Below the pieces are notes generated by a model that did no database searches, was not told the DNA's origin, and saw nothing but the letters and a program-made list of their open reading frames with translations. From the NCBI GenBank assembly GCA_937873225.1, contig CALMVN010000146.1, positions 335 through 64,334 on the forward strand: a stretch of 64,000 bases of DNA, in the 5' to 3' direction. The position numbers and the translations under genes are program-made. This document shows, one piece after another, positions 45,218 through 48,785 of the stretch; position 1 is the first letter of the stretch; the number at the start of each line of letters is the position of its first letter. The stretch is from an uncultured Acetobacteraceae bacterium (GTDB taxonomy: Bacteria > Pseudomonadota > Alphaproteobacteria > Acetobacterales > Acetobacteraceae).

Positions 45218-46054
45218 ATGACCCAGCCGAGCCCGTCCGCCGCCCTCGTCGCCGACACCCTGGACCGCCTGCGGGCGCAGGGCCCGCTGGTGCACAGCAT
45301 CACCAACCTGGTGGTCACCAACAGCACCGCCAACGCCCTGCTGGCGGTCGGCGCCTCGCCCGCCATGGTCGAGTCGGCCGAGGAGGCCGGCCCGTTCGCG
45401 CGGGTCGCGGACGCGCTGGTGATCAACCTCGGCACCATGACCGCCGAGCGCGCCCGCGGCATGCACGCCGCCGCCTCGGCCGCCCGGGACGCCGGCACGC
45501 CCTGGGTCCTCGACCCGGTCGCGGTGGGGGCGCTGGCGTTCCGCTCGACCGTCGCGGTCGAGCTGCTGGCGCACCGGCCGCAGGCGATACGCGGCAACGC
45601 GTCGGAGATCCTCGCCCTCGACGCCCTGCTTGGCGGCGCGCCGGCGATCGCCGGCCGGGGTGTCGATGCCGCACACGACGCGGCGTCGGCGCTGGATGCC
45701 GCCCGTCGGCTGGCGGAACGGAGCGGCGCCGTCGTCACCGTCAGCGGGCCGGTGGACCGGGTGACGGACGGGCGCCGCCTGGCCGAGGTCGCCAACGGCC
45801 ATCCCCTGATGCCGCGCGTCACCGGGCTCGGCTGCACGGCGACGGCGCTGGTCGGCGCCTGCCTCGCGGTCGAGCCCGACCCGCTGCTGGCGTCCGCCTG
45901 CGGCATGACGCTGATCGGCCTGGCCGGGGAGCTCGCCGCGGAACGCGCCCGCGGCCCCGGCTCGCTGCAGGTGGAGCTGCTGGACGCGCTGCATCGCCTC
46001 GACCGGCCGACGATCCTGGCCCGTGCGCGCCTCCAGCTGCACCCGCTTGCCTGA
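45218..46054 (+). CDS. thiM: Hydroxyethylthiazole kinase
   Basis: PLVHSITNLV, NALLAVGASPAM, INLGTM, WVLDPVAVG, IRGNASEI, VTGLGC, GPGSLQVELLDAL. Confidence 0.96.
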   Translation: MTQPSPSAALVADTLDRLRAQGPLVHSITNLVVTNSTANALLAVGASPAMVESAEEAGPFARVADALVINLGTMTAERARGMHAAASAARDAGTPWVLDPVAVGALAFRSTVAVELLAHRPQAIRGNASEILALDALLGGAPAIAGRGVDAAHDAASALDAARRLAERSGAVVTVSGPVDRVTDGRRLAEVANGHPLMPRVTGLGCTATALVGACLAVEPDPLLASACGMTLIGLAGELAAERARGPGSLQVELLDALHRLDRPTILARARLQLHPLA

Positions 46055-46064
46055 GCCCGATCTG

Positions 46065-46080
46065 GAACATATGGTGAACA
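46065..46080. promoter_or_regulatory. Alphaproteobacterial LexA (SOS) box
   Basis: GAACA-tatggt-GAACA, equal to GAAC-N7-GAAC, in the intergenic region 51 nt before ATG 46131. Confidence 0.7.
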
Positions 46081-46130
46081 CCGTCCGGCCGCCGTGCGCC
46101 GGACGCCCTGCAACGACGAGGCTTCCCGCG

Positions 46131-46382
46131 ATGTCGATGACCACCCGGATCATCTACCAGCCCTACCACCATGCCGGCCATGCCTCGCTGCGCGCCGGCA
46201 CGCCGGTCGCCTGCCGCACCGCGGAGGAAGGCCTGCGACGGGCCGAGCGCGCCTTTTCCGCGGGCCTGGTGGCGGGCGCGGACGTGGTGCTGGTGCGGCA
46301 CGACGAGGATGCGGACGAGTTCGGCGATCCCGAGTTCATCGGCCGGCTGGGCGACACGCCGGATCCGGCCGAACCGTCCTGA
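46131..46382 (+). CDS. Hypothetical 83-aa protein, probably SOS-regulated
   Basis: Codon usage matches neighbouring genes; sequence IYQPY...D.DADEFGDPEFIGRLGDTP. Start is 46131 or 46137. Confidence 0.7.
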   Translation: MSMTTRIIYQPYHHAGHASLRAGTPVACRTAEEGLRRAERAFSAGLVAGADVVLVRHDEDADEFGDPEFIGRLGDTPDPAEPS

Positions 46383-46397
46383 TCCGGCCGGAAACGC

Positions 46398-48785
46398 TCA
46401 GCCCGCCGGGCGTCGCGGCAGCTGGCGCCGCAGCAGCTCCTCGAACTGCCTGAACACCGGCGCGCGGGCTATGGTGAAGTCGGTGCGACCCGGCTCCGCC
46501 GCCGGCTCCGCGTCCTGGACATCGCCCGGGGCGACGAACTGCATCTCCGAGGACCCTTCCAGCAGGACAGGCGAGTCGTAGATGTGCAGGTCGGGGCGGT
46601 TCTGGAGGTTCCAGCGGCTGGTCAGCACCAGGCCGGGCGTGTTGCAGATCCAGCGGTACTTCGCGAGTGCCGCACCCAGGAGGGCGATGAAGCCGTCGGC
46701 GCGGGAACACCACAGCACGCTGCGCAGCGCCGAACGGTTGATGTTGTCGACGAACCGCACGCCCGACCGCCCGGCGACGTCCGCCAGCGCACGCCCCAGC
46801 GCCAGCTCGTGCGCCAGGTCGCTGCCGGCCGGGGCCTGCCCCGCCTGGCCGTGGTCGTGAACGTCGTTCAAGCCGTCCAGCACCACCGTGCAGCCGGGAA
46901 AGGCGCGCGCGAGGTGGCGGAGCAGGGCGGTCGCGAAGTCGTCCAGGTCGACCATGGTGCGGTTGCCGGTCCGGATGCCGAGCAGGATCACCGGCGCCGG
47001 CCGCCGCCTGGCCGCATCCGCTTCCCGGCGCGCCGCCTGCAGCTCCGGCCTCGCCTCGGCCGCTGCCAGCACCGCGCCGCGGAGCGAGGCCGGCACGCTG
47101 ATCGCGGTGTACTTGATGACGCGCTGGCGGCGCCGGTAGAACGCGTCGACGTGCGATGCGAACGGTGCGGCCTGGCGGGCGATGCGTCCGTCCAGCGACG
47201 GGAAGATGCGCTCCTCCGGCCCGAAGAACTGCTGCGTGCGGTCCAGCTCGAACATCTGCAGCTGCGGCAGCCGGTCCGTCGGCAGGTTCTGGCGCAGCAT
47301 GGCGGCGAGCCCCGACAGGTCCTGCCACACGTAGTGCCCGATGTGCATGGCGCAGCCGCCGAACACCAGCTGCACGGCGGGGTCCACCGGCCGGTCCCGT
47401 CCTTCCGCCAGCGCCGCGTCGAACCGGCTGAGATGGCGCAGCATCGTGTCGCCGACCCGGGGGATGGGCACGAAGTCGTGGGCGGTGGCCGGCGTCTGCA
47501 TCACCAGCAGCTCCGCGGTCGGAAAGTACAGCGCGTAGTTGCGGAAATGCCCGCCCGAGCAGATCACGTAGAACACCAGCCCGGTCGCCTCCTGGAGGAA
47601 GCGGTAGGCGAAGCAGTCCCGCTCCAGCAGAAGCGCGAACCCGTCGCTGTCCACCGGGTCGCCGTCCGCAGGCGAGGGCCACTGCATGCGCCCGGTCCGG
47701 AGCAGCCGGTTGGCTTCCTGCTCGAGGGGGTGCAGCACGGCGCGGCGCATCAGCTCCGGCTCGAAGCCGCGCAGGCCGCGCCGCGTCGGCACCAGGTAGC
47801 CGAGCCCGGGCGGCAGGGTGTCGCTGAGCGCCCAGATCCGCGTCTCGCCGCCCCGTCCGGTCGCCTCCATCCAGGCCGGGGCCAGGCTGCCCAGGTCGGC
47901 GGACGGCACGCCGCCGGTCACCGCGGCGAGCGGCGGGGACGGCCCGTCGCGGCCCAGCACCCCCTGCTCCCACAGCCCCTCGAACGCCGGCATCGCCTGG
48001 CGCAGCACGTGCTCCCGCAGGGCGGGCGGCAGGTGGCCCAGATGATGTCCGACCACGCGCCCGTGCAGGTCGGCGAACCAGGCCGCCCGTTCCCCGTCGC
48101 GGTGGCGCAGCGCGATCGTCAGCATCGGCGCGAAACCGGTCTCGATCGCCTCGACCCGCCACCCGTCCTGCAGCTCGGCAGGGGTTCCGCCGGGGCCGAG
48201 CGGCACCATCGCGCCGGGATGGCCGATGCGGTAGCCGCTGGTGCCGGCGACGGGCTCGAAGCGGAGCGGCGGCGGCGGACCCTGCCAGGTCTGCGCGGCC
48301 TGCACCGACGGTGCCGGCGCGTCCAGCAGCGCGTCCAGCCCGTGCCGCACCACCTGCGGCAGCCGGAGATAGGCCTGCACCGCGGGCGGCATGGCGATGC
48401 GGATCGGCGCGTCGCGGGTCATGGACAGCCACAGCGCCACCTCGCGCATGCGGGCGGCCGAGCGGGCGCGCTCCGCGTGCGGCCGCTCGTGCGGCGGCGG
48501 CGCCATCCGGCCGGTGTTGTCGATGTTCCACCAGGCGAACTCGCCGTTCTCGTGTCGCAGCACCAGCAGCCATAGCGGGTCCAGCAGCGTGAACAGGCTG
48601 TCCGCCCGCCAGCCCGGGTTGAACAGCCGCACCGGCCGCTCCGCGCTCATCAGCGCGATCGGCGGGCGGCCGGGGATGCGCAGGAGCATCCCGTCCGGGC
48701 CGTGATGCACCGGACGCTCGACCAGCAGCGGCAGCGCTCCGCCGACGGCATCGTCGGCCAACCTGGTTCCGGTTCCTTCAAACAC
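46398..48785 (-). CDS. Large hypothetical protein: two 40-aa N-terminal repeats plus a C-terminal GT61/DUF563-like glycosyltransferase-type region
   Basis: Protein-like sequence runs from about 48785 (GTG) or 48761 (TTG) to the stop. C-terminal motifs HIGHYVWQDL, LLGIRTGNR, TVVLDG, ADGFIALLGAALA. The frame stays open to 49640, so the start is uncertain (ATG 49280 is possible). Confidence 0.75.
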   Translation of the reverse strand: MFEGTGTRLADDAVGGALPLLVERPVHHGPDGMLLRIPGRPPIALMSAERPVRLFNPGWRADSLFTLLDPLWLLVLRHENGEFAWWNIDNTGRMAPPPHERPHAERARSAARMREVALWLSMTRDAPIRIAMPPAVQAYLRLPQVVRHGLDALLDAPAPSVQAAQTWQGPPPPLRFEPVAGTSGYRIGHPGAMVPLGPGGTPAELQDGWRVEAIETGFAPMLTIALRHRDGERAAWFADLHGRVVGHHLGHLPPALREHVLRQAMPAFEGLWEQGVLGRDGPSPPLAAVTGGVPSADLGSLAPAWMEATGRGGETRIWALSDTLPPGLGYLVPTRRGLRGFEPELMRRAVLHPLEQEANRLLRTGRMQWPSPADGDPVDSDGFALLLERDCFAYRFLQEATGLVFYVICSGGHFRNYALYFPTAELLVMQTPATAHDFVPIPRVGDTMLRHLSRFDAALAEGRDRPVDPAVQLVFGGCAMHIGHYVWQDLSGLAAMLRQNLPTDRLPQLQMFELDRTQQFFGPEERIFPSLDGRIARQAAPFASHVDAFYRRRQRVIKYTAISVPASLRGAVLAAAEARPELQAARREADAARRRPAPVILLGIRTGNRTMVDLDDFATALLRHLARAFPGCTVVLDGLNDVHDHGQAGQAPAGSDLAHELALGRALADVAGRSGVRFVDNINRSALRSVLWCSRADGFIALLGAALAKYRWICNTPGLVLTSRWNLQNRPDLHIYDSPVLLEGSSEMQFVAPGDVQDAEPAAEPGRTDFTIARAPVFRQFEELLRRQLPRRPAG
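48054..48623 (-). repeat. Internal protein repeat (48504-48623 and 48054-48173)
   Basis: Gapless 40-aa alignment with 15 identities: GWRxxxxxTxxxPxxxxxLRHxxGExAxWxxDxxGR. Confidence 0.8.

Follow-up and report, generated by a model that had tools for sequence, protein, structure and literature searches.

The 76-nt gap that follows thiM in the genome of an uncultured Acetobacteraceae bacterium raises the question of whether the GAAC-N7-GAAC repeat found there is an operator of LexA, and what kind of protein is encoded by the small gene that begins just downstream from it. The window, that is, the whole stretch of DNA that was analysed, is 64,000 nucleotides long (C146:335-64334), and belongs to an assembly of 4.06 Mb in 348 contigs, with a G+C content of 70.5%. 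The original prediction, made from the sequence of this window, proposed an alphaproteobacterial LexA box in front of an uncharacterised 83-aa protein, which would be a candidate new member of the SOS regulon. Outside E. coli and Caulobacter, many of the genes in SOS regulons are still unstudied, and the small SOS regulators, such as DinI, RecX, SulA, and the antirepressors, are lineage-specific, with no counterpart known to us in the Acetobacteraceae.

Architecture of the locus and its putative promoter

The box is present as it had been described, with GAACA-TATGGT-GAACA at 46065-80 (GAACATATGGTGAACA at 46065-46080), which reads as GAAC (46065-68), ATATGGT, GAAC (46076-79), and a final A (46080), and provides an exact match to GAAC-N7-GAAC at 46065-46079. 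The stop codon of thiM, TGA, is located at 46052-54, and the distance of 51 nt between the box and the ATG of the small reading frame is exact (Table 1). The box lies within the 76-nt intergenic gap, and the long gene on the minus strand, which ends at 46398, is convergent, so that only the small gene of the plus strand can be served by it.

Table 1. Features annotated at the locus downstream from thiM, with positions counted from the first letter of the window.
Feature	Position	Strand	Basis or remark
thiM (hydroxyethylthiazole kinase)	45218..46054	+	PF02110, E 1.4e-76; same-strand gene located upstream, given for context
Putative -35 hexamer TTGCCT	46047..46052	+	Overlaps the final thiM codons and the stop codon
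Predicted LexA operator, alphaproteobacterial type, GAACA-TATGGT-GAACA	46065..46080	+	Exact GAAC-N7-GAAC direct repeat; weight matrix; footprint
Putative -10 hexamer TATGGT	46070..46075	+	Within the operator spacer; TAT invariant, spacing constant
7-bp hairpin GTCCGGC...GCCGGAC in the 5' leader	46083..46104	+	Part of a 26-29-nt segment
Shine-Dalgarno core AGG (in GACGAGG)	46119..46121	+	9 nt before the ATG; invariant in 11 orthologues
83-codon gene, soluble acidic protein	46131..46382	+	Homologues and purifying selection; ATG 46131, TGA 46380-82

The 83-codon reading frame, whose product ends in ...HDEDADEFGDPEFIGRLGDTPDPAEPS, exactly as quoted in the original prediction, is a real gene, with purifying selection among nine orthologues of the genus (pN approximately 0.019 vs. 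pS approximately 0.26). The start is placed at 46131 because conservation of the N-terminal sequence MxxTTxIIYQPY extends across the family. An in-frame ATG at 46071 was considered as an alternative start and was rejected, given that it is replaced by ATA in four orthologues.

The phylogenetic footprint was based on the alignment of 11 gaps, which comprise those of the nine genus orthologues, a metagenomic relative with 86% identity (two near-identical contigs), and Rhizosaccharibacter, with 73% identity. Four islands are invariant in all 11 orthologous gaps, that is, CTTGC, GAAC.TAT...GAAC, AGG, and ATG. The 12 nt that separate the -35 hexamer from the box are variable, as is the leader between the box and the AGG, in both its sequence and its length (20-49 nt). 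The box is kept at 11/11 orthologous loci with varying flanks, at a synonymous divergence of approximately 0.26. One of the checks suggested at the outset was whether the homologues also carry the box, and this proved to be the case in 9/9 of the genus orthologues, in the metagenomic relative, and in Rhizosaccharibacter, where the neighbourhood is different. In this last genome, the upstream gene encodes an ABC permease rather than ThiM, and the box, GAACGTATGGAGAACA, is located 68 nt before the ATG, which indicates that the box moves with the gene.

In the genus orthologues, as in the metagenomic relative, 17 nt separate TTGCCT from TATGGT, and in Rhizosaccharibacter, TTGCGG is found 18 nt upstream from TATGGA; in three orthologues, the -10 variant is TATAGT. 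The conservation of the -35 element is due in part to coding constraint on thiM, since the hexamer overlaps the thiM coding sequence in most of the orthologues, and CTTGC also persists where it is not coding for thiM, in G017, where thiM ends earlier, and in Rhizosaccharibacter. A scan of positions 45900-46600 for promoters and terminators did not call TTGCCT-17-TATGGT, which matches 8/12 positions, for a threshold of 9/12. From the footprint, we infer a promoter of the sigma-70 type, in which the spacer and the -10 element would be covered by the operator. This is the usual geometry of repression by LexA.

The same arrangement may be read in another way, with the box as a chance or non-LexA site, the gene either constitutive or read through from thiM, and the conservation attributable to the -10 element TATGGT rather than to an operator. 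The TAT within the box could indeed be kept as part of a -10 element, and no terminator was found after thiM in the scan of 45900-46600, which is also in keeping with this reading, given that LexA-independent expression by read-through from thiM could take place. Both GAAC cores, however, are invariant in the 11 orthologues, while the neighbouring positions vary, and a -10 element alone needs neither of the cores.

The leader also contains a segment of 26-29 nt with a hairpin, which is present in 5/9 and absent from 4/9 of the genus orthologues, with stem sequences that differ from one genome to another. The stability of this hairpin does not exceed that of shuffled sequence (z -0.61), and it is probably of no consequence.

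The LexA motif in this genome

The bare GAAC-N7-GAAC motif has a single match in the window, where 0.8 matches are expected by chance and one or more are found in 48 of 100 shuffles. This expectation favours the reading of the box as a chance site, and the box is therefore not significant by itself; its significance derives from how it ranks when the whole genome is searched with a matrix and from its conservation in the orthologues.

The motif appears to be functional in this genome, which has 74 exact matches, with boxes with an A/T-rich spacer located directly 5' of lexA (C205), uvrA (C311), imuA (C286), and parE (C221), and further boxes of this type at a second imuA-imuB locus (C307) and at a radical SAM gene of DNA modification or repair, TIGR03916 (C337). 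When the products of the box genes were checked against NCBIfam, LexA, UvrA, ParE, and rSAM_link_UDG were above the cut-off, and ImuA was the best match but fell below its cut-off. The weight matrix was built with the candidate left out, from 11 sites at lexA, uvrA, parE, the radical SAM repair gene, and imuA, five of them from this genome and six of them imuA boxes of relatives. The candidate has a score of 21.99, which is rank 8 among the approximately 8.1 million positions of the 4.06-Mb genome, in comparison with 21.1 at lexA, 21.9 at the radical SAM gene, 24.5 at uvrA, and a range of 21.1-32.9 for the training sites. A score like those of the lexA and uvrA boxes argues against a chance site.

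The direct repeat GTTC-N7-GTTC is the SOS box of Caulobacter and the Alphaproteobacteria, and is common to related bacteria (PMC9578287); in the account of da Rocha et al. (2008) that is given in PMC9578287, the GTTC-N7-GTTC / GAAC-N7-GAAC operator is assigned to Rhodobacter, Sinorhizobium, and Caulobacter. The box described here shares the direct-repeat cores of this operator and their spacing, its spacer is likewise A/T-rich, and it overlaps the promoter as well, with no difference at the level of the operator. It is a standard alphaproteobacterial LexA box, and the new part is its target gene. The assignment made in the original prediction is thus upheld by the occurrence of the same motif at lexA, uvrA, the two imuA loci, parE, and the radical SAM gene, and by the rank of the candidate, and the conservation of the box at the orthologues, together with the boxes of canonical SOS genes, supports the small gene as a candidate new member of the regulon.

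A number of other sites were recorded in the same search. The two imuA(-imuB) loci have exact boxes just upstream, at C286:12172-12186 and C307:1584-1598, the latter on a contig of 2.3 kb. At recA, there is no exact GAAC-N7-GAAC, and a box with one mismatch, GAACAAATAGGGTAC, is found approximately 130 nt upstream (C125:8021-8035), with a matrix score of 17.5. An exact box, GAACAAAGGGTGAACA, is located approximately 130 nt upstream from mraZ, at the head of the division and cell-wall cluster (C209:2133-2147). The box at C206:18623, which is rank 2 in the genome, lies without a clear gene, and other high-scoring boxes are found at the start of a topB-like topoisomerase III (C185:6708), 52 nt before a REC-PAS-GGDEF-EAL protein (C123:2910), inside a low-GC stretch (C233:1290), and between a cheW-like and a glyoxalase-fold gene (C178:34609). 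A contig with a gene for a Tn3-family transposase also has a box-like site at each end (C58:181 and C58:6735), and these two sites are probably part of the terminal repeats of the transposon, rather than LexA sites.

The reading favoured here, with a probability of roughly three in four, is that the 83-codon gene is repressed by LexA through the box over its promoter. We infer the binding of LexA at 46065-46080, and in undamaged cells, LexA on this operator, over the spacer and the -10 element, would block RNA polymerase. When the DNA is damaged, RecA filaments would trigger the self-cleavage of LexA, which would, in turn, release transcription. The 83-codon gene, as a monocistronic unit, would then be transcribed, leading to the synthesis of a small, soluble, acidic protein, which, judging from the predicted operator and from its occurrence at relatives of the gene in other genomes, very probably represents a new protein induced by DNA damage.

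A family found on chromosomes and in prophages

Homologues of the 83-aa protein were found in 17/21 genomes of its own genus, in 23 of the 143 genera sampled from the Acetobacteraceae, including Rhizosaccharibacter radicis, and in 7/400 genomes of other alphaproteobacterial families, and an exhaustive profile search recovered 104 clusters at 50% identity. No second copy was found in this genome, including the vicinity of both imuA loci. These proteins of approximately 80 aa constitute an unnamed family, found mostly in the Acetobacteraceae, with scattered members elsewhere in the Alphaproteobacteria. An in-frame TAG, which may represent decay, is found in some of the paralogues (at L020, of genome G005, and at L010 and L011, of G006 and G015).

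The family was surveyed for exact GAAC-N7-GAAC matches within 450 nt upstream. The box was found at 6/29 Acetobacteraceae loci, 1/7 loci of other families, and 3/8 distant members, in comparison with a background of 1.3% of the genes of this genome; these rates are descriptive, given that kin genomes are not independent, and they overstate the enrichment. No box was found within 450 nt at approximately 40 of the 66 family loci examined, so that the family is not defined by SOS control.

The boxes found occur in a variety of settings. At two loci (L048 and L049), the box follows a histidine kinase gene and is located approximately 61 nt before the ATG, whereas it is 287 nt before the ATG at L042. 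In one member from another alphaproteobacterial family (L058), the distance to the ATG is 51 nt, and a TTGACG hexamer is found just upstream from the box, while in Arenibaculum, of the Azospirillaceae (L066), the box is 30 nt before the ATG. In a prophage of Methylobacterium soli, of the Hyphomicrobiales (L068), the distance is 54 nt, and in a second Hyphomicrobiales prophage (L067), two family paralogues form a tandem pair behind the box GTTCTTTGTTTGTTC. A relative that is 90% identical to the L067 protein was found on a viral contig from IMG/VR (L073), where the only GAAC-N7-GAAC match precedes the same tandem pair. In both cases (L067:2233-2752 and L073:2685-3252), two very divergent tandem paralogues lie behind a single box and are followed by a phrog_4506 protein. 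The more distant members with exact boxes are found in at least five additional contexts, among which are two prophages and one IMG/VR contig.

On the family tree, the presence of the box requires at least four to seven changes, and its distribution reaches from the deepest branch, which is prophage-borne, to the clade of the window, in which 11/11 members have the box, with a support of 100/100. LexA control would then be recurrent in the family, whether ancestral or repeatedly gained, and not universal. The lack of the box in most family members favours a chance or non-LexA site in the window. The recurrence of boxes in unrelated contexts, at rates of approximately 20-40% against the background of 1.3%, points the other way, and when these observations are taken together with the invariant cores and the matrix score, a chance or non-LexA site is considered improbable.

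A second connection to the damage response is found in the neighbours of the family. At five loci (L019, L020, L021, L030, and L041), the small gene is arranged head to head with imuA, with the LexA box of imuA in the shared gap, and at L047, it is adjacent to imuA, just upstream from the box of that gene. Two other loci, L012 and L043, have an eroded version of this arrangement, in which a remnant of imuA persists beside the small gene and the box has been lost. The six adjacencies to imuA are far beyond chance. Where the gene is divergent from imuA, a distance of 116-186 nt separates the box from the start of the small gene, and the box may serve imuA only.

This arrangement, in which a single box is shared with imuA, suggests that the protein might assist or regulate the error-prone polymerase system ImuA-ImuB-DnaE2 as an accessory factor that binds ImuA, ImuB, or DnaE2 and modulates damage-induced mutagenesis, a role that would also be compatible with the existence of two imuA loci in this genome. 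Only six of approximately 66 loci adjoin imuA, however, and in this genome, the small gene is far from both imuA loci, while no imuABC is found near the prophage copies. The protein has no significant Pfam match, and hence none to a family of the ImuB-C/DUF6504 type, if the Pfam copy includes one, and the available part of a survey of the mutasome module in more than 3000 genomes does not include such a small partner (PMC12926913). A role in the ImuA-ImuB-DnaE2 system is therefore regarded as doubtful.

The third connection is to prophage immunity. Three of the distant members (L066, L067, and L068) adjoin genes of CI/LexA-like repressors with HTH and Peptidase_S24 domains, and the surroundings of L067 and L068 include an ERF recombinase, a YqaJ exonuclease, and a YdaS/Cro-like gene, which together represent a prophage early or immunity region. 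The deepest branches of the family tree are prophage-borne. The family would thus appear to have been wired repeatedly into the SOS network, through its own boxes, the imuA-divergent loci, and the prophage immunity regions. The overlap of the box with the promoter, the links to imuA and prophage immunity, and a connection to LexA that appears recurrent but not universal are additions to what had been proposed originally.

The protein and its possible role

The protein has no relatives among the families searched. No match was found for it, or for 22 members of the family, in Pfam (E up to 1), and none was obtained in NCBIfam or PDB sequence searches with the protein and the family alignments. 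In particular, no family-profile match was found to DinI (PF06183), YebG (PF07130), SulA (PF03846), PsiB (PF06290), or ImuB-C/DUF6504. Nine family members had no match in the PHROGs, and a tblastn search of 50,697 deposited phage records recovered none. The literature searched contained no description of the family, nor of a small imuA-divergent protein in the Alphaproteobacteria.

The AlphaFold2 model based on 75 homologues has a pLDDT of 87.5 and a pTM of 0.74. It predicts a beta-beta-beta-alpha-beta-beta topology, with a hairpin at residues 3-22, a strand at 26-28, a helix at 31-43, and strands at 49-58 and 68-74, followed by a disordered acidic tail. The positions most conserved in the family are G49, P67, G74, and P77, within the motif D..x(G/D)(D/E)(Y/F)GEP..L.R.G.VP, and the composition of 14 acidic and eight basic residues results in a net charge of approximately -6. 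A Foldseek search of the PDB with the 75-sequence model returned nothing significant (best E 0.19), and DinI was absent among the matches listed. In BFVD, a weak similarity was found to uncharacterised phage proteins (best E approximately 7e-3, TM 0.4-0.67), and this says nothing on function, given that the best viral matches are themselves uncharacterised. An initial model, based on 17 sequences (pLDDT 70), had only a weak resemblance in Foldseek to the RbcS-like fold (E 0.085, TM approximately 0.4), which was rejected as non-significant.

No hydrophobic or transmembrane segment is found in the 83-aa sequence, and the model is that of a soluble alpha/beta domain. Nothing in the sequence or the predicted fold suggests an enzyme or a membrane protein. 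From its small size, its solubility, its acidity, its predicted LexA control, and its occasional neighbours imuA and prophage repressor genes, it may be speculated that the protein is a modulator of the SOS response that acts by binding another damage-response protein, which would be the RecA filament, a repressor of the LexA/CI type, or the ImuA-ImuB-DnaE2 complex.

The first two of these partners define a role as a modulator of RecA filaments or of S24 repressors of the LexA/CI type, as an analogue of DinI or Tum, of prophage origin, which has been domesticated on chromosomes. DinI is a LexA-regulated modulator of RecA filaments in E. coli, with 81 aa, prophage-borne paralogues, and a Pfam family of its own (PF06183). 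The family resembles it in its size, solubility, acidic C-terminal part, and predicted LexA control, as well as in having both chromosomal and prophage copies. It differs from DinI in having no match to it in sequence or fold, with a predicted beta-beta-beta-alpha-beta-beta arrangement that lacks the acidic C-terminal helix of DinI. By analogy, DinI would be the nearest counterpart in lifestyle, although membership of its family fails on both sequence and fold.

The antirepressors represent the other side of this comparison. Tum of coliphage 186 and the Gifsy antirepressors are phage antirepressors under the control of LexA, and the distant members of the family are similar to them in that a small gene lies behind a box and directly beside a repressor gene, in prophage early regions. 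The prophage-borne position of the deepest branches is also in keeping with such a role, and there are documented cases of small phage proteins under SOS control whose target is LexA or a phage repressor, such as gp7 of GIL01, which acts on LexA (PMC4551915), and an SPbeta-like SOS antirepressor (bioRxiv 10.1101/2025.11.27.690993). The copy in the window, however, is chromosomal, with no surrounding prophage and no sequence relationship to phage antirepressors. The prophage repressors beside the family also carry S24 self-cleavage domains, which is a difference from the phage antirepressor systems, given that these repressors may cleave themselves with no need for an antirepressor. The absence of any match to the DinI family or any other in Pfam, to DinI or any other structure among the PDB matches listed, to the PHROGs, or to sequenced phages also counts against this role, which is put forward here as a tentative possibility.

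A further possibility is that the protein inhibits division while DNA is repaired, as in the case of SulA or the prophage proteins Kil and DicB, with its induction by the SOS response delaying division. SidA of Caulobacter is restricted to its lineage, and genes for small cytosolic inhibitors of division are typically found among the early genes of prophages, both of which are compatible with this role, as is the lack of a SulA-like Pfam match here, while the LexA-type box before mraZ suggests that division is tied to the SOS response in this organism. There is, however, no likeness to any known inhibitor in Pfam or in the Foldseek search of the PDB, no membrane segment of the type found in the division inhibitors SidA and DidA, and no genomic link to division genes. 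The inhibition of division is thus an unlikely role for the protein, and, in this rough division of the possibilities among a modulator of RecA or the repressors, a partner of the ImuA-ImuB-DnaE2 system, and a division inhibitor, the remainder corresponds to some other function.

In its broadest form, the proposal is that the family is an unrecognised SOS effector of the Alphaproteobacteria, common to chromosomes and temperate phages, which binds RecA filaments, LexA/CI-type repressors, or ImuA-ImuB-DnaE2, and this is advanced with considerable reserve. The gene is, nevertheless, a concrete and conserved candidate with three independent ties to the damage response, that is, its own operator, its adjacency to genes of error-prone polymerases, and its prophage-repressor neighbours. 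The protein is short, soluble, and easily tested, and its confident structural model has no known relative, which means that an unnamed family could enter the databases. The survey of boxes also offers a first view of the probable LexA regulon of this genus, with lexA, uvrA, the two imuA loci, parE, and the radical SAM repair gene, and possible further sites at recA (with one mismatch), mraZ, and topB. If the broader proposal is true, the family would modulate the SOS response, in its strength or its duration, or else damage-induced mutagenesis or the induction of prophages, and would fill the role that is played in the enterobacteria by DinI, RecX, or the antirepressors.
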